Below, one piece after another: positions 6,517 through 36,550 of a stretch of 64,000 nt of DNA (position 1 is the stretch's first letter; each line of letters begins with the position of its first letter). The translations under genes and the position numbers were made by a program. This DNA is from Thalassobaculaceae bacterium (GTDB lineage Bacteria > Pseudomonadota > Alphaproteobacteria > Thalassobaculales > Thalassobaculaceae), in the NCBI GenBank assembly GCA_965228875.1, contig OZ245843.1:310001-374000 (forward strand), given 5' to 3'. The notes under the pieces were generated by a model that saw nothing but the letters and a program-made list of their open reading frames with translations, was not told where the DNA came from and did not search any database.

Positions 6517-6517
6517 G

Positions 6518-7198
6518 TCAGGGCACCACCCGACCGTTCTCGATGACCAGGGTTCGGTCGCAGCGGGCGGCCAGTGCCGGATCGTGTGTGACCAGCAACA
6601 AGGTCGTGCCGGAACTGCGGGCCAGGTCGAACATGGTCGCGATGACCACCTCTCCGGTCTGCTGATCCAGGTTGCCGGTCGGCTCGTCCGCCAGAACCAG
6701 GCGGGGTGAGGCGACGAAGGCGCGGGCGATCGCGACGCGCTGCTGTTCGCCGCCGGACATGGCCGACGGCCGATGGTTGAGGCGGTGGCCGAGACCGACA
6801 CGCTCCAGCATCCTCGCCGCAGCTTCCGGTGCGCCGGGCTCGTCCGCCAGGGTCAGAGGCAGCGCCGCGTTCTGAAGCGCGGTCATCGACGGCACCAGGT
6901 GGTAGGCCTGGAAGACGATGCCGATGTCGCGTCGCCGCAGCAGCGTGCGGGCACGTTCGCTCTCGCCCGACATCTCGATGCCGAGGATCCGGGCTTCTCC
7001 GGCGGAGAGCGGTTCCAGACCGCCGATCACGGCGATCAGGGAGGACTTTCCGGAGCCGGACGGACCGGTCACGGCGACGATCTCGCCGGCGGCGATATCC
7101 AGGTCGATGCCGTTCAGCACCTGGATGTCGCCCTCCGGAGAGGGATAGGAGAGGCGGGCCTTGGAAAGCCGGACGATGGGAGCAGCAGTCAGATCCAT
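6518..7198 (-). CDS. YbbA/LolD-like ABC transporter ATP-binding protein
   Basis: [45 protein letters not shown]. Confidence 0.9.
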
Positions 7199-22771: not shown

Positions 22772-23121
22772 ACCGCGGCCGTGCCGGAGTTCAAACGCCG
22801 ATACTTGCGATCGCGATCAGGATTTCGAGCCGAATCGCCGGCTCGGGCAAGAGATCGGGTCGAAGATGTTGCGCCGAGTGATAGTGGTGCGTGTTGTAGT
22901 GCTCTGATTTCGCGTGCATGGAGACTTGCGGTTCCGTGCCGGGCGTCCCACAAGCTGTGCAAAGTGTCTGTACAGACACGGCGTGGCTTGCATTTCCGGG
23001 CTTAGCGAAAATAAGAATCTAATCGCGGATAGTTTGATCCGGGTCACAATGCTACCAGCCATGCCCGGATCCGGTGCTGTATGCAATAGACTGTAGGAGT
23101 CGCTCTGACCGGGGAGGGGGG

Positions 23122-24195
23122 ATGACTCAGATCGTTGATACGCTGATCGCCGACGGGGCCGAAGATCCGATCCCGAGCGCGGTGTTCAGTTTGGATACCG
23201 TGGCCGCGCGCGAGCGCTACGATCTGTGGCGGGACAGCATTTCCTGCATCTTCCAGGCGGATGTCGATCGGGACGTGCGGAGCGACGGCTTCTTCGCAGA
23301 GGTGGACGCGAACATGTTCGGCCCGCTCATGCTGGCCCGAACGAAGAGTCGCGAGCATCTCTGGCAGCGCACGCCGTCGATCCTGGCCCGCGATGGCATG
23401 GATCACTACATGATCCAGCTCTATGAATACGGCGAGATGGTCTGGGAGACGGACACCGGAACGCGCAGCCTGCCGAAGAACGGGCTCATGGTCATCGATC
23501 TCTCCCAGGAACTGCGCACGAAGACCTCCGACTTTCAGAACCTGTCGCTGATCGTGCCGCGTGAGATGCTCGACGGAGCGCTGAAATCGCCGAGCGACCA
23601 GCACATGAGAGTGCTTGGTGGCGAAGAACCGATGGTGACGCTGCTGCGCGATCACATGGTGTCGCTGAAGGGCCTGGCGGGGCGGATGACCCAGCAGCAG
23701 GCCATGGAGATCGCCCCGGCCACCGTGGGGCTGGCCGCGGCCTGCCTGAACGCTGCCGTCAATCAGGAGTCGCCGGCGGAGCGGGGCGGCGTGGTGTTGG
23801 CCCAGCTGACCGTGATCCGGCGGTTCATCGAGGCCAACCTTTCCGAGCCGGACCTGTCGGCGGACTGGATCGCGAAGGGCGTGGGGGTTTCCAGATCGAA
23901 GCTGTACCAGTTGTTCGATGCTTTCGGCGGGGTCGGAACCTATATCCGGGACCGGAGACTGAGGCGTGCCCTGCTCGCGCTTACGGACAACAGGTCGCGT
24001 CACCGTCCGATCTACGATATTGCGCTCGCCTCGGGGTACTCGAGCGATGCGGCGTTCAGCCGGGCGTTCCGGTCCCGCTACGGGATCGCACCGCGCGACG
24101 TCCGCAACAACGCGCATCCCCTGGATCGTATGGACAGGTATCGCGGCGACCTCGACCGTCGCTACGAACGCTGGTTGCATCACCTGTCGGTCTGA
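23122..24195 (+). CDS. AraC-family transcriptional regulator (FeaR-like N-terminal domain)
   Basis: GGAGG RBS. ERYDLWRD N-terminus, C-terminal double HTH IEANL...GVSRSKLYQLF...IRDRRL...IYDIALASGYSSDAAFSRAFRSRYG. Confidence 0.92.
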   Translation: MTQIVDTLIADGAEDPIPSAVFSLDTVAARERYDLWRDSISCIFQADVDRDVRSDGFFAEVDANMFGPLMLARTKSREHLWQRTPSILARDGMDHYMIQLYEYGEMVWETDTGTRSLPKNGLMVIDLSQELRTKTSDFQNLSLIVPREMLDGALKSPSDQHMRVLGGEEPMVTLLRDHMVSLKGLAGRMTQQQAMEIAPATVGLAAACLNAAVNQESPAERGGVVLAQLTVIRRFIEANLSEPDLSADWIAKGVGVSRSKLYQLFDAFGGVGTYIRDRRLRRALLALTDNRSRHRPIYDIALASGYSSDAAFSRAFRSRYGIAPRDVRNNAHPLDRMDRYRGDLDRRYERWLHHLSV

Positions 24196-24229
24196 GCGGC
24201 GGTCTGCCGCAGACCGAATACATCCTGAC

Positions 24230-24273
24230 CGCAAGCACGGCGGCGCCCCATGGGCGCCGCCGTTTGCGTTTCT
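24230..24273 (+). terminator. Rho-independent terminator after the AraC gene
   Basis: ACGGCGGCGCCC-cat-GGGCGCCGCCGT 12-bp stem followed by T-rich TTGCGTTTCT. Confidence 0.7.
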
Positions 24274-24517
24274 CGTGGCTGGACTGCGGCGCCGACGTCC
24301 GCCCGTCGACGTCCGCCGGTCGACGTGCTCCTGCACAGTACTCCGAACGAACGGCAAACCGGAATGAACTGGGAGGAATGAATCCGAAACGTCCGGACAA
24401 GTAGCCGGAAGACGTAACGCCATAATTCACCAGGCGCCGCGGTGCGCGAACCGAAGTCGCAAGAACCGAGTTCGCAGATTCCGGCGCTGGAAGGATTGTT
24501 GGCGGGGCGAAACCGGA

Positions 24518-25765
24518 ATGGCGATATTTCGAGAGAAGGCGCTCAAGCGGCTTTCATCGCCGGAAAACCTGGACGAGGCGCTGGTCGCGGCGTCGCCATT
24601 TCATTGGGTCGCCTTCCTCTCGGCGGGTGCGCTGGTTGCGGCCGCCGTCGCCTGGGGCGTGTTCGGCAGCGTGCCGACGCGGATCAAGGCGGACGGCATC
24701 CTGCTGCATCGCGACAGCGAGGTGTTCTCGGCCTCGGCGGAAGGGACGGGCAAGCTGATCGACGTGACGGTCGCGCTCGGCGACCGGGTCACGGCGGGAC
24801 AGGTCGTCGCCCTGTTGAACCAGGACGTCGACGAGCGCCGCCTGGAACTCCTGGTCGACAAGATGCAGAGCGCGCGGGCCAGACGCGATGCCGACGAGAG
24901 GGCGCAGCGCGAGGACAGCGTTCTCCGCGCGGACCTGATGGCGAAAGAACGTGCCTCGCTCTCCGCGAAGATCGCCAATGCGAAGGCGCGCGAGGCCAAC
25001 CTGCTTGAATTGGTCGCCGACATGCGGAGCCTGCTCAAGCGAGGGTTCATCGAGCGTTCGCGGCTCCTGGCCCGGGAAAACGAACTGATTCAGGTGCGCG
25101 AGACCATCGCGGATCTCAACAACTCCCTGGTCAAGCTCGAGGTCCAGAACCGGGAACGCGCGGAGTACTGGAGAGACCGCGTCTACGCCTCTGAGAAGGA
25201 ACTCGAGGCGCTGCACGACGAGATGGAGAACATCCGCGAGCAGCTCAAACGGGTCCAGACCGTCGACGCGCCGATCACCGGCACGGTCACGGAGATCTCT
25301 GCCAGCCTGGGCGACGTGATCGCCGCCGGAACGGCCGTGGTCCGGATCGTCTCCGAGGCGACGGAGATGGATGCCCTGCTTTTCGTCCCACCGTCGGACG
25401 GCAAGCTGATCAAGCCGAACCTGACCGCGAATATCGAGCCGACGGTGGCGAAGAAGGAGGAGTTCGGCACCATCCTCGCCAATGTCCGCAGCGTCTCGGA
25501 CCTGCCGATGTCGTCCTCGGCGATCCAGGCGATGCTGCAGAACGAGAAGCTGGTCCAGCAGTTCAGCGCCAAGGGCGCTCCGGTGGCGGTCCGTGCCGAC
25601 CTGCTCGAGGCGGGTAATGACAAGGAACGGTTCCGGTGGACCGGCGGTGCGGGGCCGAGCTTCGACATCGAGCAGGGTACCCTCGTTGCGGCGACCATCA
25701 CCGTGCGCCGTCAGCGCCCGATCACGCTGATCCTGCCGTTCCTCAAAAACCTCGTCGGCCTCTGA
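24518..25765 (+). CDS. NHLP bacteriocin system secretion protein (HlyD-type membrane fusion protein)
   Basis: IFREKALKRLSSPENLD N-terminus, single TM, lipoyl halves flanking a coiled coil, EEFGTI, QRPITLILPFLK C-terminus. Confidence 0.9.
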   Translation: MAIFREKALKRLSSPENLDEALVAASPFHWVAFLSAGALVAAAVAWGVFGSVPTRIKADGILLHRDSEVFSASAEGTGKLIDVTVALGDRVTAGQVVALLNQDVDERRLELLVDKMQSARARRDADERAQREDSVLRADLMAKERASLSAKIANAKAREANLLELVADMRSLLKRGFIERSRLLARENELIQVRETIADLNNSLVKLEVQNRERAEYWRDRVYASEKELEALHDEMENIREQLKRVQTVDAPITGTVTEISASLGDVIAAGTAVVRIVSEATEMDALLFVPPSDGKLIKPNLTANIEPTVAKKEEFGTILANVRSVSDLPMSSSAIQAMLQNEKLVQQFSAKGAPVAVRADLLEAGNDKERFRWTGGAGPSFDIEQGTLVAATITVRRQRPITLILPFLKNLVGL

Positions 25766-25767
25766 CC

Positions 25768-27927
25768 ATGGCGGCCGGTATGAAGATCGCGAACCGCCGG
25801 GTGAAGACGCCGACCGTGCTGCAGATGGAGGCGGTCGAATGCGGCGCCGCGGCGCTGGGGATCGTTCTGGCGCATCACGGCAAATGGCGGCCGCTGGAGG
25901 AGCTCCGGACCGAGTGCGGCGTGTCCCGCGACGGCTCGAAGGCCAAGAACGTCCTGTACGGCGCCCGACGCTACGGGCTGCAGGCCAAGGGGCGCAAGGC
26001 GCTGGTCGAGACCGCGCTCAACACCCCGTTTCCCTTCATCGCGTTCTGGAACTTCAATCACTTCCTGGTGGTCGAGGGGTATCGGAACGGCATCGTCTAC
26101 CTGAACGACCCGGCAACCGGCCCGCGAACGGTGACGCTGGAGGACTTCGACAACGCGTTCACGGGCGTGATCCTCGTCTTCGAGCCCGGCGAAGGGTTCA
26201 CCCGCGATCCCAAGCCGCCCGGTGTGATCGCCCGCCTGCTGCCGCGCACGGCCTCCATCCGCAGTGCGATCCTGCTGTCGGTGCTGATCAGCCTCACCCT
26301 GGTCGTGCCGGGGCTCGTGGTTCCGGGATTCTCCAAGGTCTTCGTCGACGAAGTGCTGATCAACGGCAAGGACGACTGGCTCGGCCCTCTCCTGCTGTTC
26401 ATGGTCGGAACGACGATCGTGACCGCGATACTGACGTGGCTCCAGCAGGCGGTGCTGCTTCGAACGGAGTCGAAGTTGGCACTGGCGGCGTCGGCGCGCT
26501 TCGTCTGGCACCTGATCCGCCTGCCGATCGACTTCTTCAATCAGCGCCATCCGGGCGACATCTCCAACCGCATCGACGCGAACGACAGGATCGCAGCCTC
26601 TATCGCCGGCGATCTCGGCGAGAGCCTGGTGAGTGTCGTCCGCGTGGTGTTCTACGGCGCGGTGATGCTGGCGTTCGACTGGATCCTCGCGATCGCGGCC
26701 ATGGCTCTCTCGCTGACGAACATTCTGGTCTTCCAGGTCCTGATGCGTCGCCGCGCTGACGCGAGCCTGCGCGTGCAGCAGGAGTTCGGGCAGTTTCAGT
26801 CGGCCTCTGTCACCGGCATTCAGGCGATCGAGACGTTGAAGGCCACGGGAACCGACGATGACTATTTCGAGCGCTGGGCCGGGTTCCAGGCCAAACATCT
26901 GAACAACCAGCGTCGTCTCGGGCTGTATGGGGTCATCGCCAACAGCTTTCCGCCCCTGCTGGACGGTCTGACGATCGCCGCGGTGCTGGGGCTCGGCGGC
27001 TGGCGGATCATGCAGGGCGAGATGACGATCGGCACGCTCGTCGCCTTCCAGGCGCTGATCCAGAATTTCTCCGGACCGATCAACGCCCTGGTCGCGACCG
27101 GCGGTGCGATACAGGAGCTCAACGCCGATCTGATCCGTACCGATGACGTCTTCAAGCAGGACCGCGACCGCCGGTATGCGGACCGGTCGGGTGGACAGAT
27201 CGACCGGCTGAGCGGCCGCATCGAGCTGCGCGACGTGACCTTCGGCTACAGCCGGCTCGAGCCGCCGCTGATCGAGAACTTCAACCTGACCATCGAGCCG
27301 GGCGCGCGGGTCGCCCTGGTCGGTGGTTCGGGCAGTGGGAAATCGACCATCGCCAAGTTGATGACGGGCCTCTACCGGCCCTGGTCGGGCGAGATCCTGT
27401 ATGACGGCCGGCCGTTGGACAGCATCCCCGTGTCGACCCTTACCCAGTCGATCGCCTCGGTCAGCCAGGAGATCATCCTGTTCGGCGGCACCGTCCGCGA
27501 CAACCTCAGCGCCTGGGACGAGCAGGTTCCGGCCGAGGAGATGATCGAAGCGCTCGACGATGCCCGGATTCTGGATGTCATCTCCGGCCGGGGAGGTGCG
27601 CTGGAGGCCGAGGTCGACGAGGGCGGCGGCAACTTCAGTGGCGGCCAGGCCCAGCGCATCGAGATCGCCCGCGCGCTGTCGATCGACCCGTCGATCCTCA
27701 TTCTCGACGAGGCGACCAGCGCCCTCGACGCGACGACGGAGGGCGAGATCGATGTGGCGATCCGGCGCCGTGGCTGCACCTGCGTCATCGTCGCCCACCG
27801 GCTGTCGACCATCCGTGACGCCGACGAGATCGTCGTCCTGAACTTCGGTCAGGTCGTGGAGCGTGGCAGCCACGATGAACTGGCCGAGGCCGACGGGCCC
27901 TATGCCCAGCTGATTGCGCAGGGGTGA
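25768..27927 (+). CDS. NHLP-type ABC exporter with N-terminal C39 peptidase (PCAT)
   Basis: [19 protein letters not shown] (catalytic Cys), [18 protein letters not shown] (His), [23 protein letters not shown]. Confidence 0.93.
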
Positions 27928-27931
27928 GCGG

Positions 27932-30799
27932 ATGAGCAGCGTGGAGCCGATCGACGAGACAGGCACGGTGCGCACGGTCAGCGGCCGCGACCGGATCTCG
28001 CTGTCAGCGGGACACAGTCTCCTGAGTGTCGAGCGGGGTGCGGTCAATCTGTTTATCCAGCTCACGGCTGAGGACGGCACGCCGTTGGGGGCCCGGCGCA
28101 TGATTGCCGCCCTCGAGCAGGGTGCCATGCTGCCGCTACCGGGTTGCGCTTTCGACGGCATGCGTCTGATGGTGGTCGGCGTCGGTGCCTCGGCGATCCG
28201 CCTGTTCGACGCCGATGAGCGCGACACTGTCACGGCCGATCCGGACACCTTCGTGATCGCGACGGGCATCGGGTTGGCGAGGCTGTTGCGCGACGCCGGC
28301 GGCCGGGACCGGTCCGAACATGCGGCTTTTCTGATCTCGCCCGGAGAGAGCGCCGTCCTCGCAAGTGGTACCGCGGTGTCCGCCGCCCGCCCGACGTGGA
28401 TCCTGTCCCGCGACGCCGGAACGGATCGCGACGCGTCCGACATCGCTCTGGTTGGCCCAGGCCGGTCGATCACGCTCGCCGCCGAGGGGGAACTGCGCGC
28501 GCTGGACATCGCGCAGCTGATCCGCGAGCGGGGGTGGCAGCCGGTCGATCGCTGGGTCACGGATGCCATGGTCGACGTCGCACGCGACCTGCAAGAATGG
28601 ATGGAGGAGCGCCGGCGCCGCATGGCCCGTGTGACGGAAGACGACGTTGCCCAGTTGGACAACGCCCTCGGCCGTTTGCCGGCAATCGTCAACGACGGTG
28701 CGACGCGTGCGCCGACGGTCGGGGTGCGCGGCTCCGTGCCGTCCATCGTCAGCGCACTGCGGCTGGTCTGCGAGGCCCAGCGGATCGAGTTTTCGCCGCC
28801 GGCCGAGGTGCTCGACGACCCGGATCCGGAAGTCGTGCTGCAGGATGTCCTGCGCCGGGCCAATCTGCGGTTCCGCAAGATCGTCCTGCCGGACCGCTGG
28901 TGGCGTCGCGACGGCGAGAACGCCGTCGGCTTCGATCTCGAGACCGGGGACCCGCTGGCGATCCTGCGGACCGGGTCGGGGAGGTTCGAACGGGTATCGC
29001 CGGTAGACGGCTCCCGTTCCCGCATCGGAGCCGCATCGGCCAGACGGATCGACGAGCAGGCCTTCGTGGTCTTCAAACCGCTGCCGTTCCGACCGCTCAA
29101 GGCCATGGACCTCGTCAGACATGTGCTGTCGGGGCGGGCGCGTTTCGACATGCGCTGGGCAGCCGTGCTGGCGGTGCTGACCGCGCTGCTCGGTCTGCTG
29201 CCGCCGATCCTGACCGGGCAGTTGCTGAACGAGGTCGTGCCCTTCGCCGAAGAGCAGCGGCTGATCGTTCTCGCCCTGGGGCTTGCCTTCATGGCGCTGG
29301 GAAGCGCGGCGTTCCAACTGGTCCGGTCGATCGCCCTGCTGCGGGTCGAGGCATTCGCCGACGGCGCGCTCCAGGCGGCGGTCTGGGACCGGCTGCTGCG
29401 GCTGCCGCTTACCTTCTTCCGCAGCTACGAGATCGGCGACCTGCTGATAAAGGCGATGGGACCGACACAGTTGCGCCAGGCGGTGTCCGATACCGCGCTG
29501 AGTTCGGCCCTGTCGGCGATCTTCTCGGTCGTGAACTTCGTGCTGATGATGACGTACGACTCCGCCCTCGCCGGCGCGGCCTTCGTCTTCACGCTGGTCA
29601 CCAGCCTCATTCTGCTCGGGCTCAGCCGCCTGCAGCTCCGCTTCGAACGGGTCCAGCTGAAGGCGGATGCCTCCGTCTCCAGTTTCATCATCCAGATCCT
29701 GGTCGGGATCCAGAAGATCCGCCTGATGGGGGCCGAGGACCGGGCGTTCGCGCGCTGGGTGCACCGGTTCGCGGATCAGCGTCAGCACCTGGTCCGTGCC
29801 GCCCGCATCGGAAACGCGATCCAGACCTTCAGCGTCGTTCTGCCCGTGCTTGCCAGCATCATGTTCTTCTACATGGTCGGTACCGCCGGGGAGGACCGTC
29901 TCTCCGTCGGCAGTTTCGTCGCCTTCAACGCCGCATTCGGCGGTTTCCACGGCGCGTTGCTCGGCCTGGTCTCGGCGGTGTCGGCGTCGCTGTCGGCGAT
30001 ACCGGTCTACGAGAACATGAAGCCGATCATGGACGAACAGCCGGAGCTCGATCCCGAGCGGAACCCCGCACCTGTGCTCGACGGCGGTATTCATCTCAGC
30101 AAGGTGTCCTTCCGCTACGACGAGGACGGCCCGCTGATCCTCGACGGCATCGACATGAGCATCGGAGCGGGTCAGTTCGTCGCCTTCGTCGGCCCGTCCG
30201 GTTCCGGCAAGTCGACGCTCTTCCGTTTGCTGCTCGGCTTCGAGACGCCGGAACAGGGGACCATCGGCTACGACGGGCTCGACCTCTCGCGCCTCGACCT
30301 GAAGACGGTGCGCCGTCAGATCGGCGTCGTTCTTCAGCGCGGTGCGATCCTGCCGGGGTCGATCTTCGAGAACATCGTCGGTTCCGCGCCGCTGTCCCAG
30401 GAGGAAGCCTGGGAGGCGGCCCGCATGGCGGGGCTCGACGAAGACATTCAGCACATGCCGATGGGGATGCACACCGTCCTGACCGAGGGCGGCGGCACCT
30501 TGTCGGGCGGTCAGCGCCAGCGGCTGATGATCGCCCGGGCGGTGGTGCGCAAGCCGCGCATCCTGCTGATGGACGAGGCGACCAGCGCGCTGGACAACCG
30601 GACCCAGGCGATCGTTTCGGAGTCGCTGGCCCATCTCAACGCCACGCGGATCGTCATCGCCCACCGACTGAGCACCGTGGTCAACGCCGACCGCATCTTC
30701 GTCGTCGTCGGGGGTCGTGTCGTCCAGGCGGGGACCTATGACGAGCTGATGCAGGTGGACGGCCCGTTCCGCGACCTCGCGCAGCGGCAGATTGCGTGA
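27932..30799 (+). CDS. NHLP-type ABC exporter, second (peptidase-less) permease/ATPase subunit
   Basis: Long N-terminal extension, WWRRDG motif, [27 protein letters not shown]. Third member of the NHLP export triad. Confidence 0.9.
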   Translation: MSSVEPIDETGTVRTVSGRDRISLSAGHSLLSVERGAVNLFIQLTAEDGTPLGARRMIAALEQGAMLPLPGCAFDGMRLMVVGVGASAIRLFDADERDTVTADPDTFVIATGIGLARLLRDAGGRDRSEHAAFLISPGESAVLASGTAVSAARPTWILSRDAGTDRDASDIALVGPGRSITLAAEGELRALDIAQLIRERGWQPVDRWVTDAMVDVARDLQEWMEERRRRMARVTEDDVAQLDNALGRLPAIVNDGATRAPTVGVRGSVPSIVSALRLVCEAQRIEFSPPAEVLDDPDPEVVLQDVLRRANLRFRKIVLPDRWWRRDGENAVGFDLETGDPLAILRTGSGRFERVSPVDGSRSRIGAASARRIDEQAFVVFKPLPFRPLKAMDLVRHVLSGRARFDMRWAAVLAVLTALLGLLPPILTGQLLNEVVPFAEEQRLIVLALGLAFMALGSAAFQLVRSIALLRVEAFADGALQAAVWDRLLRLPLTFFRSYEIGDLLIKAMGPTQLRQAVSDTALSSALSAIFSVVNFVLMMTYDSALAGAAFVFTLVTSLILLGLSRLQLRFERVQLKADASVSSFIIQILVGIQKIRLMGAEDRAFARWVHRFADQRQHLVRAARIGNAIQTFSVVLPVLASIMFFYMVGTAGEDRLSVGSFVAFNAAFGGFHGALLGLVSAVSASLSAIPVYENMKPIMDEQPELDPERNPAPVLDGGIHLSKVSFRYDEDGPLILDGIDMSIGAGQFVAFVGPSGSGKSTLFRLLLGFETPEQGTIGYDGLDLSRLDLKTVRRQIGVVLQRGAILPGSIFENIVGSAPLSQEEAWEAARMAGLDEDIQHMPMGMHTVLTEGGGTLSGGQRQRLMIARAVVRKPRILLMDEATSALDNRTQAIVSESLAHLNATRIVIAHRLSTVVNADRIFVVVGGRVVQAGTYDELMQVDGPFRDLAQRQIA

Positions 30800-30832
30800 G
30801 GAACAGCATGCCCGGTGAGAGGAGCATCGATC

Positions 30833-31123
30833 ATGTCGACCACGGACTCGGATCTGGATCTGGTCCTAGCGCGGCTTGCGGACGACCCGGCGTTCTTCGA
30901 GGCCTGTCAGCGGGCGACCAGGGGCCGACAGGGCGACGAGGCGATCCTGAGGTTGATGAATTTCGCTTCGGAGTCCGGCTACGAGGTCACGTTCCAGGAG
31001 GCGAAGGAGACGCGGAAGCGCGCTCTCACCCTGCAGGCCGAGCGGATGCGCGTGCTTCGCGAGGCGCTGGCCCGCGAGCGCGGCCGGGACGTTCGTCTCG
31101 AGGATTTCTTCAGGCAGTGGTGA
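30833..31123 (+). CDS. Nif11-like small protein without a double-glycine site (96 aa, ends EDFFRQW)
   Basis: GAGGAG RBS. LADDPAF...QGDEAI...ASESGYEVT resembles the downstream leaders, and it shares their C-terminal Trp motif. Confidence 0.75.
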   Translation: MSTTDSDLDLVLARLADDPAFFEACQRATRGRQGDEAILRLMNFASESGYEVTFQEAKETRKRALTLQAERMRVLREALARERGRDVRLEDFFRQW

Positions 31124-31286
31124 CGGGCCGTCACCGTCATCCGATCGATCGAGCTCGGCGGGCCGCAGGAATGCCCGTCATCCGCCGAGCCAACAGGCCG
31201 GCCGGGAAGCATTTTCCGGTTCGGACCGATGTCGACGGACGGGCGTACCAACGCTCCCGCAGGGGCGCAACCAAGAGGAGTTCAAG

Positions 31287-31733
31287 ATGACAATGCAGGC
31301 AATGGCGTCGTTTGTGGAGAAGGCGCAGCAGGATCCGGCACTGGCCGAAGAACTGGTCACCATCATCGATCAGAACGACACCGACGCGATCTATTCCAAG
31401 GTGGTGACGCTCGCCAACGACAACGGCTTCTCCGTGACCGTCGATGACGTGAAGGAGACCCGTCAGCAGTTCGAGAAGATGTCCGACGCGGGGTACGAGG
31501 GCGACATGAGCGACGACGAGCTCGACAACGTCTCCGGCGGTATCGTCGTGTCCTCGGCGGTCGCGGCCGCCATCATCACCGGTGGACTCGGCGTTGCCGC
31601 GGCGGGCGTCGGAGCGGCTGGTGCCGTCGGCGCGGCGGGTGTCGGCGCCGGTGGCGTGATCGCGGCGGCGGTGATTAAGCGCGGTATCAACAACACCGTC
31701 AACGACATCGGCAATTTCTTCAAGAAGTGGTGA
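31287..31733 (+). CDS. Nif11-like leader RiPP precursor A1 (85-aa leader, 63-aa core)
   Basis: FVEKAQQDPALAEEL...ANDNGFSVT...MSDDELDNVSGG, then an Ala/Gly/Val-rich core ending GNFFKKW. Confidence 0.9.
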   Translation: MTMQAMASFVEKAQQDPALAEELVTIIDQNDTDAIYSKVVTLANDNGFSVTVDDVKETRQQFEKMSDAGYEGDMSDDELDNVSGGIVVSSAVAAAIITGGLGVAAAGVGAAGAVGAAGVGAGGVIAAAVIKRGINNTVNDIGNFFKKW

Positions 31734-31738
31734 CCGAT

Positions 31739-31767
31739 GGCTGCGGGTGCACTCCGTACCCGCAGCC
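31739..31767 (+). promoter_or_regulatory. Intergenic stem-loop between A1 and B1
   Basis: GGCTGCGGGT...ACCCGCAGCC 10-bp stem followed by pyrimidine-rich TCCTCTTC. Conserved in the second repeat copy. Confidence 0.6.
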
Positions 31768-31797
31768 TCCTCTTCAACGCTTGCAGGGATCAGAAGC

Positions 31798-32223
31798 ATG
31801 TCCAATCAGGCAATGACACAGATGCTCGAAAAGGCTATGGCCGACGAGGGTTTCGCCCAGGGGCTTGTTGCCGCCGTCGGCGAGAAGCAGGGCGACGCGG
31901 CGATCGATGCCGTGGCCGAGTACGGCAAGGCGAACGGCTTCGCCGTCACCGCTCAGGACGCCACGGAGATGCAGCGCCATCTCATGGCGACGGCCGTTAC
32001 CCCCGAAGGCGATCTCGACGATGCGGACCTCGACAATGTGGCGGGTGGTGTCGGCGTGCTTTCGCCGTTCGTCAGCGGATTCGGCAGTGGCGGCGGCCTG
32101 AACAACGCGTTGTCGAATTGGCACATCGGCGGCGGCGTCCGTCCGCAGCCGGCCGGCCCCTCGGTCGGCCAGGCCATCGATCAGGGGCTCCGGTCGGTCG
32201 AGAACTTCATCCGGCAGTGGTAG
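31798..32223 (+). CDS. Nif11-like leader RiPP precursor B1 (84-aa leader, 57-aa core)
   Basis: ...GKANGFAVT...LDDADLDNVAGG, then a core ending ENFIRQW. Confidence 0.88.
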   Translation: MSNQAMTQMLEKAMADEGFAQGLVAAVGEKQGDAAIDAVAEYGKANGFAVTAQDATEMQRHLMATAVTPEGDLDDADLDNVAGGVGVLSPFVSGFGSGGGLNNALSNWHIGGGVRPQPAGPSVGQAIDQGLRSVENFIRQW

Positions 32224-32230
32224 TCCGCCG

Positions 32231-32276
32231 GTGTCGGCACATCGGTCCAGTCATTGTCGCAGCGATGTGCCGACAC
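32231..32276 (+). promoter_or_regulatory. 14-bp inverted repeat after B1
   Basis: GTGTCGGCACATCG-N18-CGATGTGCCGACAC. Confidence 0.55.
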
Positions 32277-32491
32277 GGGGGCTACCCGGACCGGTCCGAG
32301 AAGCCCTCTCGTGATCGTCGATGGCATGCGGACCGACTGTCGCGTCCATGCCAATCGAGCTCGGCGGGTCCAGGACATGGCCGTCATCTGATGAGTCAAC
32401 CAACCAGTCGGGGAAGCTTCTCCGGTTCGGACGATGCCGGCGGACGGGCGCACCAAGGCTTCCGCCGTGGCGCAATCAGGAGGAGTTCAAG

Positions 32492-32956
32492 ATGACAATG
32501 CAGGCAATGGCTTCGTTTGTGGAGAAGGCTCAGCAGGATCCGGAACTAGCCGACGAACTGGTCTCCATCATCGATCAGAACGACACCGACGCGATCTATT
32601 CCAAGGTCGTGGCACTCGCCAACAACAACGGCTTCGCCGTGACCGTCGATGACGTGATGGAGACCCGTCAGCAGTTCGAGAAGATGCCCGAGGGGGGATA
32701 CCAGGGCGACATGAGCGACGACGAACTCGACAACGTCTCTGGTGGCATCGCGTCGGCGGTCCAAGCCACCGGTTCACCACTCGGCAATGCTGCGGCCGCC
32801 GGTGCCGTGGGTGTCCGCACCGCTGCTATGACGTCCACGGCGATCGTTCAAGCCGCGGACTTGAGTGCAGCGGGCGCCCGCGTCGGTGGGGGCATCGCCT
32901 CGGCGGTGACCAAGCGCGGCGTCAATGACTTTGGTAGCTTCATCAAAAAGTGGTGA
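32492..32956 (+). CDS. Nif11-like leader RiPP precursor A2 (85-aa leader, 69-aa core)
   Basis: Leader 74/85 identical to A1 by manual alignment. ELDNVSGG site, core ends GSFIKKW. Confidence 0.9.
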   Translation: MTMQAMASFVEKAQQDPELADELVSIIDQNDTDAIYSKVVALANNNGFAVTVDDVMETRQQFEKMPEGGYQGDMSDDELDNVSGGIASAVQATGSPLGNAAAAGAVGVRTAAMTSTAIVQAADLSAAGARVGGGIASAVTKRGVNDFGSFIKKW

Positions 32957-32962
32957 TCGATT

Positions 32963-32989
32963 GCTGTGGGTGCGCTCCGTACCCGCAGC
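32963..32989 (+). promoter_or_regulatory. Intergenic stem-loop between A2 and B2
   Basis: GCTGTGGGT...ACCCGCAGC. The C>T change relative to copy 1 keeps pairing as U-G. Confidence 0.55.
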
Positions 32990-33020
32990 CTCCTCTCCAA
33001 CACGTCCAAGGATCAGGGTC

Positions 33021-33407
33021 ATGTCCAATCAGGCAATGATACAGATGCTCAAGAAGGCGATGGGCGACGAAGGTTTCGCCCAGCGGTTCGTTACCGCCGT
33101 CGGCGACAAGCAGGGCGATGCGGCGATCGAGGCCGTGGCCGAGTACGGCAAGGCGAACGGCTTCGCCGTCACCGCTCAGGACGCTGCGGAGATGCAGCGC
33201 CAGTTCATGGCCACGGCCGATACCGCCGAGGGCGACCTCGACGATGCTGACCTCGACAATGTGTCAGGCGGTCTCAACATGTTTTCGCAGTGGACCAACA
33301 AGTCTGGCTTAACAAACCCGCCGTCGCATTGGCAGGTCGGCCGCGAACGTCTGCAACCGGCCGGCCCGTATGCCAGCCAGGCCGGGAACTTCATCCGTCA
33401 GTGGTAG
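33021..33407 (+). CDS. Nif11-like leader RiPP precursor B2 (84-aa leader, 44-aa core)
   Basis: Leader 70/84 identical to B1 by manual alignment. DLDNVSGG site, core ends GNFIRQW. Confidence 0.88.
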   Translation: MSNQAMIQMLKKAMGDEGFAQRFVTAVGDKQGDAAIEAVAEYGKANGFAVTAQDAAEMQRQFMATADTAEGDLDDADLDNVSGGLNMFSQWTNKSGLTNPPSHWQVGRERLQPAGPYASQAGNFIRQW

Positions 33408-33529
33408 CTGGGCGGTGCGGGCATAGCGGGTCGGCCATTGCCGGAGCGATGTGCCCCACACCGGGGCGAGGCGGGCGGATCCGGCTGGCGCCCTCCTGGC
33501 CATCTATCCGATCAGGTCCCGTCGCTTTC

Positions 33530-35065
33530 ATGGACGATGAGATGAAGAGCCAAGCGCATACAGGCTCGCTGACCGACAATCGCCAGGTCCCTGACTGGTC
33601 CGGGGTTGTCGGCGGGGCATACGTGCTGACCGACCCCGCCGACCGTGCCGCCTGGGGGCGCCGGACCTTCGGGCCGGACGTCCCGGTGGCCGCAGTCGTG
33701 CGGCCGGGTTCCGCTGCCGAGGTCGCCGGAGCGCTCCGGATGGCGACGCAGCATCGGCACCCTGTCCACCCCGTCAGCCGGGGTGCGAACTGGGGCATGG
33801 GCTCGCGGGCGCCGATGCAGTCAGGGGCGGCGATCCTGGACCTGTCACGGCTTACGACGATCGAGGAGGTGGACTTCCGGCACGGCGTGGTGCGGGTCGA
33901 ACCGGGCGTAACGTTCCAGATGCTCGCCGATTACCTGACCGAGCGCGGCTCGCGTTTCTTCGTACCGGAAATCGGCGGGTCGCCGGATGCCAGCGTCCTT
34001 GCCAATGCGTTGGACCGTGGAGACGGCGCCCTGGGCGACCGGTGGGCGTCGCTGAGCGATCTGGCTGTCGTCCTGCCGGACGGCCGCGTTGTCGAGACCG
34101 GGTTCGCCGGACGGTCGGCGCATCGTCTCGCCGGTCTGCACGAGGGCGCCGCCGGTCCGGTGATCGACGGACTGTTCAGCCAGTCGAACCTTGGCGTCGT
34201 CGTGGCTGGCTGCCTTCGCCTCGAACCGATGCCGGAGAACCTCGCCATATTCAGCGTGCGTGTCGACGCGCGGGAGGCGATGCCCGACATGCTTGAGGTG
34301 CTGCGCGAGATGCAGGTCGCCGGTGCGGTGCGCGACCGGTCGGTGACGCTGTGGAACGGCGTGAAGTTCCTGGCTCGCGAGAATCCACGGGTCCGGTACG
34401 ACGAGAGCGCAATCCGGCAGGCGGCGACCGAGACATGGATGATGTCCGGCTACCTCCAGGGCGAGACCGAGGCCCTGCTCACCCAACGCGGCAACTGGGT
34501 TCTGGAGCGTTTCGCCGCCGGCGGCATGCAGGCGGACGCCAGTCTGGTTCGCATCGGCGGCCAGTGGCTCGACGGATGCGACGGTCTGCTCGGCAGCCCG
34601 AGTCCACGCAATCTGCGCACCGCCTACTGGAGCGAGGACGGTATTCCAGAGGCCGAGGCCATGGATCCGGACGCCGACGGTTGCGGGCTGCTCTGGCTTT
34701 GCATCGCGTTTCCGTTCGACGGGGAGGTCGTGGCGCAGTTCGCGCTGCGGGCGGCGACCATCCTCGGGCGCTACGGAATCGACTTCAACTTCGGTGCGGA
34801 AGCCGTAAGTTTTCGCTGTCTGCTGTCCTACGTGAGCATGTCGTATCGACGGGACGGCCCGGACGACGACGCGTGTGCAGTCGAGGCCTACAGCGCCGTA
34901 CTGGAGGAGGCGGAGGCGATGGGGCTCGCTCCGTACAGGTTGGCGAACGGTCTGGCGAGAAGCTGCCGGTCGTATCCTGATCCTCTGGACGACTACCTGG
35001 CCGCGCTCCGCCAGGTTGCGGATCCGGCGGGGATCCTCTCGAAAGGCCGTTCCGGTATCGGCTGA
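33530..35065 (+). CDS. FAD-binding oxidoreductase, VAO/p-cresol methylhydroxylase flavoprotein family
   Basis: VSRGANWGMGS, LDLSRL, VEPGVTF..L, SVLANALDRG, GPVIDGLFSQSNLGVV, C-terminal PYR and DPAGILSKGRSGI. Start could also be 33542. Confidence 0.85.
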   Translation: MDDEMKSQAHTGSLTDNRQVPDWSGVVGGAYVLTDPADRAAWGRRTFGPDVPVAAVVRPGSAAEVAGALRMATQHRHPVHPVSRGANWGMGSRAPMQSGAAILDLSRLTTIEEVDFRHGVVRVEPGVTFQMLADYLTERGSRFFVPEIGGSPDASVLANALDRGDGALGDRWASLSDLAVVLPDGRVVETGFAGRSAHRLAGLHEGAAGPVIDGLFSQSNLGVVVAGCLRLEPMPENLAIFSVRVDAREAMPDMLEVLREMQVAGAVRDRSVTLWNGVKFLARENPRVRYDESAIRQAATETWMMSGYLQGETEALLTQRGNWVLERFAAGGMQADASLVRIGGQWLDGCDGLLGSPSPRNLRTAYWSEDGIPEAEAMDPDADGCGLLWLCIAFPFDGEVVAQFALRAATILGRYGIDFNFGAEAVSFRCLLSYVSMSYRRDGPDDDACAVEAYSAVLEEAEAMGLAPYRLANGLARSCRSYPDPLDDYLAALRQVADPAGILSKGRSGIG

Positions 35066-35113
35066 GCGGCCGTCGAAGGCGCCGGTCGGGCCCCATGCGC
35101 GGTTGTCGGCGGT

Positions 35114-36550
35114 TCAGTCCTGGAAATAGCGGTCGCCCGTGGTGGCGAGGCCATACCATCGGTCGCGAACCTCGCGGTAGTGCCGGTCGTAATCGTAGTA
35201 GTCGACGGGCAGGGCGAGGTCCTGTGCGGTCAGCCGTCCCATCGCGGCGAGAAGCTGGTAGCCGGACACCAGGACGTCGTAGCGCGCGCGGACCAGGCGG
35301 ACCTGACCGTCCAGCAGGGACTGCTCCGCGTCGAGGACGTCGAGGACCGTCCGGGCCCCGACCGCCGCCTCGCTGCGAACGCCTTCCAGCGCCAGCGTTG
35401 CCGCCGATATCTGCGTCTCCAAGGCGTCGATCTGAGACAGATTGCCCTGCAGCGCCTCGAAAGCGTTGGCCGCCTCCTCTCGTGCCGACCGGAGCTGGTC
35501 GATCGCGGTGAAGCGCAGCCGGCGGAGGTTCTCGTGGGCCTCCCGGGCCTTCGAGGAGGCGATGCCGGACTGGTACAGCGGCACGGAGAGCCGCAGGGTG
35601 GCGGTCGCGGCCCAGTTCAGGTTGTCTCCACCGCCGGAATTTTCGGCGCGGCTGACATCGGCCACGAGATCGAGGGATGGCAGCAGGTCGGACTCCGCCG
35701 CGTCGAGCTGATGCGCGGCGGCAGCTTCCGCGAAACTGGCCTGGATCAGGGCGAAGTTGCCGTCTGTGGCTGCATCGACCGCCGCGGAGCGGGTCTCCGG
35801 CAGCGCCGTCGGCAGTGTCGGAACCGTAAGCTGGCCGGGAATGCTGCCGATGACGCGCTCGTAGGTGACGCGGGCCTGTGCCAGGCTGGCTTCGGCCTGC
35901 CGTACGTTGGCTCTTGCTTCCGCGACACTGGCTTGCGCCTGGGCGACGTCTGTGCGGGTCAGGTCGTCGACCTCGAAGCGTGCCGTCGTCGCCTCCAACT
36001 GCCTGTCCAACCGGTCGAGATTGTTACGCTGCAGGCTGAGTGTGGCCGACTCGCGGATCACCGTCATATAGGCCGTGACGGCCGAGATGAAGGTGTCCTG
36101 TTCGGCCCGGAACAGTGCCGCGCGCTGGGACTCGATCGTTGCGTCCGCAGCTTCGACCTTCGCTTCGACCCGGCCGAAGGTATAGAGCGGTTGGGTCGCC
36201 TGCAGCGTGAGGTTGGTCGGATAGGAACTGTTGCTGACGGTGTAGCCGTTCGACGTCTGCTCCACTGAGGTTGCGCCGACCGATCCCGACGCGTTGACCT
36301 GCGGGCGCCAGCCGCCGAGCGCCTGGGGCGACAACTCGTCGGTCTGTCGCAGTTGCGCCCTCGCGGCGATCAGCGCCGGATTGCCGACATACGCGCGGAC
36401 CAGTGCTTCGTGCAGCGTCTCCCCGGCTGCCTGTCGCCACGGGACGATCAGCGCGATCGCCGCCAGGGACACGATCGTCAGGGGACGAAGGCTGGAACGG
36501 AGCGGCAGAGTAAGGCCCGCCCTGAAGAGCATCGAATACAGGTTTATCAT
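35114..36550 (-). CDS. tolC: TolC-family type I secretion outer-membrane channel
   Basis: Signal peptide then ETLHEAL..AY..NP, TRTDVAQAQA, VPLYQSG, VGARTVLDVLDAEQ, LLAAMGRLTA. Confidence 0.92.
   Translation of the reverse strand: MINLYSMLFRAGLTLPLRSSLRPLTIVSLAAIALIVPWRQAAGETLHEALVRAYVGNPALIAARAQLRQTDELSPQALGGWRPQVNASGSVGATSVEQTSNGYTVSNSSYPTNLTLQATQPLYTFGRVEAKVEAADATIESQRAALFRAEQDTFISAVTAYMTVIRESATLSLQRNNLDRLDRQLEATTARFEVDDLTRTDVAQAQASVAEARANVRQAEASLAQARVTYERVIGSIPGQLTVPTLPTALPETRSAAVDAATDGNFALIQASFAEAAAAHQLDAAESDLLPSLDLVADVSRAENSGGGDNLNWAATATLRLSVPLYQSGIASSKAREAHENLRRLRFTAIDQLRSAREEAANAFEALQGNLSQIDALETQISAATLALEGVRSEAAVGARTVLDVLDAEQSLLDGQVRLVRARYDVLVSGYQLLAAMGRLTAQDLALPVDYYDYDRHYREVRDRWYGLATTGDRYFQD

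Follow-up and report, generated by a model that had tools for sequence, protein, structure and literature searches.

A VAO-type flavoprotein paired with tryptophan-ended precursors in a bacteriocin-type export cluster of a Thalassobaculaceae bacterium

FeeG, CndG and HyeB are flavoproteins of the vanillyl alcohol oxidase/p-cresol methylhydroxylase (VAO/PCMH) type and have been tied to long-chain enol esters, chondrochloren and hyellamide, respectively; according to the hyellamide paper and a review, oxidative decarboxylation of N-acyl-tyrosine has been shown for CndG and proposed for FeeG. Here we describe a related enzyme, P0001, which is encoded at positions 33530–35065 of the forward strand in a 64,000-nucleotide stretch of contig OZ245843.1 (assembly GCA_965228875.1) from a Thalassobaculaceae bacterium; this whole stretch is referred to as the window throughout. 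FeeG, CndG and HyeB act on the tyrosine of small lipids, which come from an N-acyl amino acid synthase or from non-ribosomal peptide synthetases and polyketide synthases (NRPS/PKS), whereas the partner of P0001 is a ribosomal, leader-bearing and exported peptide or protein that ends in tryptophan. The proposed substrate of P0001 would, however, be of the same chemical kind, an aromatic amino acid that is acylated and has its carboxylate free. The pairing of the enzyme with Trp-ended open reading frames (ORFs) is repeated across several bacterial phyla and points to an undescribed modification of peptide ends.

Several enzymes that act on the last residue of ribosomally synthesised peptides that are modified post-translationally (RiPPs) invite comparison. 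The HFCD flavoproteins EpiD, MrsD and CypD use their flavin to decarboxylate the last residue of their precursor oxidatively and leave an enamide-type end, the outcome that we propose for P0001, but their fold and cofactor site are unrelated and the residue is Cys instead of Trp. MftC of the mycofactocin pathway oxidatively decarboxylates the C-terminal aromatic residue of a ribosomal peptide, a reaction that a review likens to the VAO-type reaction on N-acyl-tyrosine; unlike P0001, with which it has no sequence relation, MftC is a radical S-adenosylmethionine enzyme and its substrate is Tyr. The brominase SrpI and the prenyltransferase PalQ modify the C-terminal Trp of NHLP/Nif11-type or other RiPP precursors, yet they belong to the halogenase and prenyltransferase families and substitute the ring rather than oxidise the side chain. 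The fold of P0001, the export system next to it and the decarboxylation of N-acyl-tyrosine by members of its family are already known; a full-text literature search, which left most subscription journals uncovered, returned no published account of the pairing of this enzyme with Trp-ended peptides or of the clade-specific residue changes detailed below.

The flavoprotein and its characterised relatives

The gene comprises 511 stop-free codons that translate to 511 residues. It follows the last of five small ORFs (stop at 33407) on the same strand after a gap of 122 nt, and an earlier note on this DNA had correctly described it as co-directional with and right after the last precursor. The same note had it enclosed by TolC: flanked by the last small ORF and a TolC gene lying 48 nt past its stop, the flavoprotein gene does lie inside the export cluster, with the qualification that TolC is convergent, on the opposite strand. 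The start codon is unsettled, as the frame is open from a GTG at 33290 and homologues align from approximately residue 20. By reading of the sequence the N-terminus has no hydrophobic signal-like stretch, and we therefore infer that P0001 is cytoplasmic. It is encoded by a single copy in the source genome, where the next-best matches are generic and score 43 bits or less.

Residues 54–191 match Pfam FAD_binding_4 (PF01565; E 1.4e-21, 77.1 bits against a cut-off of 26.4), bearing out the FAD-binding motifs that had been read from the translation. This is the sole Pfam match of the protein, and no NCBIfam model reached its cut-off (the best, GlcD, scored 34.9 bits against 567.9). An AlphaFold2 model built on a 46-row alignment (mean pLDDT 90.2) superposes in Foldseek on the solved structures of Novosphingobium nsVAO, vanillyl-alcohol dehydrogenase (VAD), eugenol oxidase (EUGO), PCMH and VAO with TM-scores of 0.81–0.85 over about 515 columns at 20–27% identity. 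P0001 shares with these five enzymes both the two-domain fold, in which FAD_binding_4 is followed by a cap domain and which places it in the VAO/PCMH superfamily, and a C-terminal Tyr-Arg pair. Among solved structures the best sequence matches are nsVAO (9fge/9ffk; E 2.3e-46, 161.8 bits, residues 23–510), the Marinicaulis VAD (8s7x), PCMH (2.5e-36, 128.6 bits), and eugenol oxidase and VAO (about 1e-23; VAO about 87 bits); the names nsVAO and vanillyl-alcohol dehydrogenase follow PMC7617285.

A search with the family member of a related locus (L079), which lies beside a TIGR03694 acyltransferase, returned protein P0165 of Hyella patelloides LEGE 07179 at 67% identity. The hyellamide paper reports a single FeeG homologue in that Hyella genome, HyeB, and proposes that it oxidatively decarboxylates N-acyl-tyrosine to an enamide; P0165 is therefore presumably HyeB. 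P0001 aligns with P0165 over its full length at 31% identity (233 bits, E 1e-74), which exceeds its score against any solved phenol oxidase, and the two proteins share the motifs N-W-G, D-G-C-G-L-x-W and P-Y-R-L as well as a Gly at the position of VAO Asp170. By sequence, the nearest characterised relatives of P0001 are the FeeG/CndG/HyeB group rather than the phenol oxidases, a comparison that was made with the Hyella protein and that takes in FeeG and CndG by description only. The earlier note had missed this precedent. P0001 and its closest kin also differ from FeeG, CndG and HyeB in having Leu or Met in place of the phenolate-binding Tyr and a clade-specific Asn361, and in forming separate clades. 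In contrast to the 4-phenol oxidoreductases, P0001 has Met at the Tyr108 position and Gly at the Asp170 position, and its gene is part of a peptide cluster, outside aromatic catabolism and with no adjoining gene for a cytochrome subunit.

Pairing with Trp-ended precursors across phyla

All five small ORFs in front of the flavoprotein gene terminate in Trp, within the motif F-[FI]-[RK]-[QK]-W, and a Tyr occurs in the core of precursor 5 only; the translations agree with the earlier reading on both points. A scan covering one genome per species gave at least 558 relatives of the enzyme, and the best 80 loci were analysed by comparing the window proteins with all ORFs of each locus and by clustering, then reading, those ORFs that lie up to 6 kb away from the enzyme. 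Three settings can be told apart. Trp-ended precursor-like ORFs are present in 26 of the 80 loci, 23 of which also carry NHLM transport genes, and no locus outside this Trp-ended group has such genes in view; eight loci with weaker ATP-binding cassette (ABC) matches (E 8e-12 to 5e-63), which have no adaptor and no Trp-ended ORF, were not counted as NHLM. The Trp-linked loci come from Nisaea, Azospirillum, other Alphaproteobacteria, Methylobacterium, Cohaesibacter, heterocystous and other Cyanobacteria, Acidobacteriaceae and two Myxococcota, those of Nisaea being fully syntenic with the window. A second setting, found in 25 loci, has an N-acyl amino acid synthase-like gene directly upstream of the enzyme, often together with PEP-CTERM proteins and glycosyltransferases. 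The synthase is of a cyanobacterial type (TIGR03694, 232 bits against a cut-off of 112 in L077), a Desulfobacterales/Nannocystaceae type (Pfam FeeM, 5.6e-16 in L041) or a Bryobacteraceae type, the last of which we assign as a synthase only tentatively, in view of weak FeeM and Acetyltransf_5 matches in 4 of 13 members each and a low hhalign probability of 26% against the TIGR03694-type acyltransferase. The remaining 29 loci have neither partner; most are from Myxococcota, three adjoin NRPS genes, several lie on short contigs, and no consistent partner was found among them. It had been anticipated that orthologues mostly unlinked to precursors would speak against a role in peptide tailoring: this describes the wider family (54 of 80 loci) but not the clade of the window.

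Precursor-linked clades, for which a phylogeny had been suggested, do exist. In a tree computed with FastTree only, from 82 family rows and five outgroup rows and with SH-like support, the window's enzyme belongs to a clade of 19 rows, all of them Trp-linked (19/19, support 99), and six cyanobacterial rows make up a second Trp-linked clade (6/6, support 99) that groups nearer the HyeB clade with weaker support. The synthase-linked enzymes and P0165 form one clade in which 24 of 25 rows are linked to a synthase (support 99). P0001 falls outside this HyeB clade, although by score it is closer to P0165 than to other VAO-type enzymes.

Diagnostic residues were compared in 81 aligned enzymes (27 Trp-linked, 25 synthase-linked and 29 others). 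The C-terminal PYR pair pointed out previously is P468-Y469-R470, in which Tyr469 and Arg470 align with the SYR of nsVAO (9fge) and the EYR of VAD (8s7q). The Tyr of the motif G-x-N-x-G-Y-G in nsVAO, VAD and HyeB, which we take to be VAO Tyr108 of the phenolate triad Tyr108/Tyr503/Arg504 (VAO numbering), is Met90 in P0001. The phenolate-binding triad of the 4-phenol oxidoreductases is thus incomplete in P0001, with the Tyr-Arg pair present and the Tyr108 position changed. At position 90, 25 of the 27 Trp-linked enzymes carry Leu or Met and 23 of the 25 synthase-linked ones carry Tyr; the others have Leu (20), Tyr (8) or Phe (1). Asn361 (window approximately 34610–34612) is found in 27/27 Trp-linked enzymes, 0/25 synthase-linked ones and 1/29 others, and the single other carrier, on a 4-kb contig, is the sister of a Trp-linked row. 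The loss of one phenolate ligand just where a Trp-ended peptide replaces N-acyl-tyrosine as the partner fits a switch of substrate.

The position of nsVAO T181, at which related oxidases have an Asp (PMC7617285), is Gly149 in P0001, so that the catalytic Asp (VAO Asp170) is lacking; this Gly is invariant in all 81 enzymes and likewise present in the decarboxylase clade. Because the Tyr108 and Asp170 positions are both changed, P0001 is, judged by its residues, not a canonical 4-phenol oxidase. The covalent flavin link is provided by His422 in VAO and Tyr384 in PCMH, and at what we take to be the corresponding position P0001 has neither His nor Tyr, the aligned stretch reading G-C-G-L-L-W. Cys385 in D-G-C-G-L-x-W, kept in 78 of the 81 family members, lies near the position of the flavin-linking His of VAO, and a cysteinyl-flavin link via this residue is conceivable. 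In the alignment nsVAO, too, has neither His nor Tyr where the covalent link would be, and it is described as binding FAD non-covalently (PMC7617285).

The precursors resemble each other in their ends. By our own reading the 26 Trp-linked loci hold 46 Trp-ended precursor-like ORFs, or 51 with the five of the window, after exclusion of ten other Trp-ended ORFs as unrelated proteins (three TonB-receptor-like, seven others). They present 40 distinct tails of eight residues, all ending in W; 35 of the 40 are hydrophobic at −3, positions −2 and −1 are taken by residues that are small, polar or basic, and the cores have no other residue in common. The cores are unrelated across loci and range from 13 to about 380 residues, and the leaders differ as well, being either of the Nif11 type with 85 residues or short with 22–27. 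Cyanobacterial cores have 13–26 residues and are Gly-rich or Arg/Trp-rich, those of Thalassobaculaceae and Acidobacteriaceae have 33–94, and in Azospirillum and other Alphaproteobacteria leaders of 22–27 residues precede cores of 300–380 residues that are rich in Gly/Ala/Ser, Lys/Ala or His.

The chance level of such an end is low, Trp terminating 2.6% of 12140 six-frame ORFs around related loci, and two controls address the association. For the first, TIGR03796 was found in 33 of 401 genomes of the window's class and up to 20 kb were fetched around 37 matches, of which two regions carry the flavoprotein and 35 are without it. A detector blind to the C-terminus, which asks for Met, an acidic stretch and x-x-G-G only, called 54 Gly-Gly-leader candidates in flavoprotein loci, 40 of them ending in W, and 27 candidates in 16 of the 35 enzyme-free NHLM regions, three of them ending in W; four of the enzyme-free candidates look false by eye. 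Counted per locus, Trp-ended candidates occur in 24/24 loci with the enzyme and 2/16 without (Fisher p 5e-9) and, after collapsing to lineages by hand, in 9/9 and 2/10 (p 7e-4); kin are not independent, which counts against taking these rough p values at face value, as they overstate the case. For the second control, TIGR03798 was found in 20 of 121 cyanobacterial genomes, giving 30 loci of about 3 kb each in which more distant genes would be missed. Seven of their 38 Nif11 ORFs with readable ends terminate in W, all in two loci, and these are exactly the two in which tblastn finds the flavoprotein; none of the 28 remaining loci has a Trp-ended Nif11 ORF.

A proposed reaction and its alternatives

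Taken together, the results support and sharpen the earlier proposal of an activity on the terminal Trp, and we consider it probable, from these sequence comparisons, that it modifies the C-terminal Trp of the peptides. In chemical terms, a peptide with Trp-COOH at its end is an N-acyl-tryptophan. Working by analogy with the FeeG/CndG/HyeB group, we propose, in a reading whose chances of being right or wrong we judge to be evenly balanced, that a cytoplasmic FAD enzyme converts this Trp to an indolyl-enamide before export. The enzyme would recognise the free hydrophobic-x-x-Trp tail independently of the leader; a hydride from Trp C-beta would be passed to FAD to give a 3-alkylidene-indolenine, which for indole would correspond to the quinone methide formed by VAO-type enzymes; the adjacent alpha-carboxylate would then leave as CO2, restoring the indole and producing a C-terminal 2-(indol-3-yl)vinyl amide (−46 Da). 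In a later step the Nif11 leader would be cut off after Gly-Gly by the C39 ABC exporter, and the HlyD/ABC/TolC system would export the product. Among the four outcomes envisaged previously for the Trp, oxidative decarboxylation appears favoured: the closest characterised relatives decarboxylate N-acyl-tyrosine, and the Trp without exception closes the chain, as it must for a reaction in need of a free carboxylate. The mechanism also fits because the cores share no other residue and the enzyme has neither a water-addition Asp nor a leader-binding domain, none of which proves it. A predicted complex of the enzyme with FAD and residues 85–128 of precursor 5 scored 0.01 against a mark of 0.32 in a run whose controls did not fold, a score that speaks neither for nor against the proposal.

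Put more broadly, and held a little less firmly, the sequences suggest that a VAO-type enzyme derived from, or sister to, the N-acyl-tyrosine decarboxylases makes indolyl-enamide ends in several phyla, including those of exported Gly/Ala/Ser-rich proteins of 300–400 residues, and that the change of Tyr to Leu/Met at position 90 together with Asn361 may mark the switch from phenol to indole.

A number of observations weigh against this interpretation. In the FastTree tree the two Trp-linked clades do not come out as sisters, so that either the pairing arose twice or the deep branches are wrong. Tyr469 is kept in only 22 of the 27 Trp-linked enzymes, and at the Myxococcota loci L022 and L026 position 90 is still Tyr, with no transporter gene in view. 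The 14 detector candidates of flavoprotein loci that do not end in W were dismissed by eye, as chance motifs in unrelated or antisense ORFs, and one flavoprotein-bearing region (L123) has at 5647–6063, upstream of an AraC gene, a plausible Nif11-like ORF that ends in Ser and is without counterpart in the window. The literature search found no characterised precedent for the oxidation of an indole by a VAO-type enzyme. Finally, terminal Trp occurs without this enzyme, since one control genome, G013, encodes at least seven tandem Nif11 precursors (L131, 12595–19990) that all end in Trp with GDGGW-like tails and has no member of the flavoprotein family at E 1e-20 or better, and another, G369, has an NHLP-type ORF ending in GGDSW. 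The tails in these two genomes lack the hydrophobic −3 residue, and we regard the G013 peptides as a different family of Trp-ended peptides. The G013 locus has Ala/Val/Gly-rich cores, NHLM export genes, YcaO, TfuA, an M23 peptidase and an unassigned 434-aa ORF. The only FAD_binding_4-like gene of G369 (L148) was weighed as a possible hidden member of the family and dismissed, as it has neither N-W-G nor the Tyr-Arg pair and its neighbour is a GlcF-like gene.

The alternative that survives best, though we think it unlikely, is that the enzyme acts on the C-terminal Trp without decarboxylation, giving alpha,beta-dehydro-Trp (−2 Da), beta-hydroxy-Trp (+16) or beta-oxo-Trp (+14). It shares all the comparative evidence with decarboxylation, and VAO-type enzymes are described as hydroxylating or dehydrogenating alkylphenols via the same intermediate (PMC7617285). 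It leaves the terminal position of the Trp unexplained, however; moreover, the position of the catalytic Asp of hydroxylating oxidases is Gly149 in 81/81 enzymes, and the nearest characterised relatives decarboxylate.

It is improbable that the enzyme uses a small molecule, either an N-acyl aromatic amino acid or a phenol, and shares nothing but regulation or location with the peptide cluster. The 25 of 80 loci in which it is paired with an N-acyl amino acid synthase-like gene and the three with NRPS genes are in line with such a substrate, as is the lack of an extra leader-binding domain, but Pfam annotation detected no synthase or NRPS gene within 23074–36550 and no N-acyl amino acid synthase or NRPS/PKS gene in the wider interval 19835–43974. 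The pairing with Trp-ended ORFs in 19/19 and 6/6 rows of clades that span phyla, its recurrence in both control sets and the replacement of the phenolate-binding Tyr likewise argue against a small-molecule substrate.

We rate as equally improbable that the tail serves the peptides themselves, in membrane anchoring, recognition by a receptor or immunity protein, or export, and that the enzyme cross-links an internal residue or takes part in self-protection. The Trp-ended Nif11 peptides of G013, which have no such enzyme, would be accounted for, cores 2 and 4 do resemble membrane-active Gly/Ala-rich bacteriocins, and other enzymes (SrpI, PalQ) are reported to modify C-terminal Trp. Against this, the cores have no further residue in common, NHLM export needs no Trp end (14 of the 16 control loci with candidates lack one), and the residues of the enzyme track the Trp pairing. 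That the association is an artefact of curation and of the shared ancestry of a few mobile clusters seems very improbable: many of the 26 loci are indeed close kin (eight Azospirillum-type, three Nisaea), precursors were called partly by eye and cyanobacterial control loci span only about 3 kb, but at least nine lineages in three phyla, with non-homologous cores and different leaders, have the tail alone in common, and the C-terminus-blind detector and two separate controls agree, with a lineage-collapsed p of 7e-4.

If the oxidative decarboxylation of terminal Trp is true, it would represent a new flavin-dependent tailoring reaction of RiPPs, the indole counterpart of EpiD acting on Cys and MftC on Tyr, and would bring into RiPP chemistry an enzyme family so far known only from lipid and polyketide pathways. 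It would give the first hint of an alkylidene-indolenine intermediate in VAO-type enzymes and provide that field with a pair of specificity residues for phenol versus indole. For genome mining, the combination of this enzyme clade with a hydrophobic-x-x-Trp end would serve as a rule, and the enzyme would likely be a leader-independent tool to cap the C-termini of peptides and proteins.

The export cluster and variations in related loci

The flavoprotein gene is embedded in an NHLP/Nif11 export cluster of the type described by Haft (2010), in which matches to TIGR03794, TIGR03796 and TIGR03797 are all above their cut-offs, TIGR03798 is above its cut-off in two of the five small ORFs and four of the five have a Gly-Gly site. 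On the forward strand an AraC-family regulator (23074–24195; Pfam HTH_18 6.3e-15), with a homologue in the same place in the Nisaea loci L001–L003, lies upstream of the export genes. These encode a HlyD-type adaptor for NHLP/Nif11 bacteriocin export (24518–25765; TIGR03794, 251.1 bits against 156.2), a C39-peptidase ABC exporter predicted to cleave after Gly-Gly (25636–27927; TIGR03796, 1010.7 bits against 853.3; Pfam Peptidase_C39, ABC_membrane and ABC_tran) and a second ABC permease/ATPase subunit (27914–30799; TIGR03797, 847.6 bits against 709.4, residues 278–960). The C39 exporter probably starts later than 25636, and its TIGR03796 match begins at residue 57; the N-terminal part of the second subunit, about 277 residues (window 27914–28744), lies outside the TIGR03797 match. 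The TolC-type outer membrane channel is encoded on the reverse strand (35114–36550; Pfam OEP 4.7e-53; TIGR01844, 302.5 bits against 225.15), in identical place and strand in L001–L003. A promoter and terminator scan yielded no promoter-like and four terminator-like sites, compared with 2.9 expected.

Two corrections concern the precursors: ORF 1 has no Gly-Gly site, and the Nif11 thresholds of Pfam and TIGR03798 (cut-off 32.3 bits) are passed by ORFs 2 and 4 only. ORFs 2–5, all on the forward strand, have Nif11-type leaders of 84–85 residues ending in V-[SA]-G-G and cores of 44–69 residues. Precursor 2 (31287–31733, 148 aa; Pfam Nif11 1.4e-07; TIGR03798, 36.5 bits) has a VSGG site and a Gly/Ala-rich core of 63 residues ending in NFFKKW, and precursor 4 (32492–32956, 154 aa; 1.5e-07; 34.5 bits) is its paralogue with a diverged core ending in SFIKKW. 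Precursor 3 (31798–32223, 141 aa; TIGR03798 below cut-off at 20.2 bits) has a VAGG site and a 57-residue core ending in NFIRQW; its paralogue, precursor 5 (33021–33407, 128 aa), with a 44-residue core and the same ending, was linked to it by a DNA alignment of the duplicated cassette. Cassette 2+3 (31124–32330) is repeated as 4+5 (32331–33529) at a mean column identity of 86%, with upstream regions, leaders and last codons kept and the cores diverged by indels, a pattern that we count in favour of the proposed reading. In each cassette a conserved G+C-rich inverted repeat lies after the first gene (approximately 31740–31766 and 32963–32989) and another after the second gene; a simple terminator scan called none of these repeats.

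Small ORF 1 (30833–31123, forward strand, 96 aa) has a Nif11-like N-terminal part by eye, ends in DFFRQW and has no Pfam or NCBIfam match. ORFs of 93–96 aa after the second ABC gene are conserved between the window and L001–L003 (7483–7761, 7298–7576 and 7740–8018, respectively), where the homologues have 93 aa and end in FLKQW. This type thus combines a Nif11-like front with a Trp tail (DFFRQW or GFLKQW) but has no cleavage site; an uncleaved substrate, a decoy, a regulator and an immunity factor are candidate roles.

Related loci show further variations. Trp-tailed proteins of 330–400 residues, with leaders of 22–27 residues that end in Gly-Gly and long low-complexity bodies rich in Gly/Ala/Ser, Lys/Ala or His, beside NHLM exporters and the flavoprotein, look like protein-sized substrates of a bacteriocin-type exporter (L004–L010 and L012 at about 5720–6880 on the reverse strand, L016 12038–13063, L044 12106–13224, L059 11569–12828 and L076 11952–12935), and the large Azospirillum-type ones have no Pfam or NCBIfam match. 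In 21 Bryobacteraceae/Solibacter-type loci (L025–L078; for example L047 2371–5787) a HyeB-like enzyme, about 60% identical to the cyanobacterial type, follows a divergent FeeM-like gene in the company of PEP-CTERM proteins and UDP-glycosyltransferases, and hyellamide-like clusters for glycolipids with an N-acyl-tyrosine enamide seem to be common among Acidobacteriota. The cyanobacterial Trp-linked clusters (L013, L014, L043; L015, L029, L031) additionally encode a DUF7005 protein, a GNAT acetyltransferase, a metallo-beta-lactamase-fold protein and a ParA-like ATPase (examples at L014 13447–14619 and L043 3434–4336). In the Acidobacteriaceae loci L034 and L042 a prenyltransferase gene of the LynF/TruF/PatF family (L042 8614–9633, reverse strand; Pfam DUF5838 7.3e-30; TIGR04445, 127.9 bits, just under the cut-off of 140) lies between the Trp-ended precursors and the flavoprotein, and the peptides of these loci may therefore be prenylated in addition.

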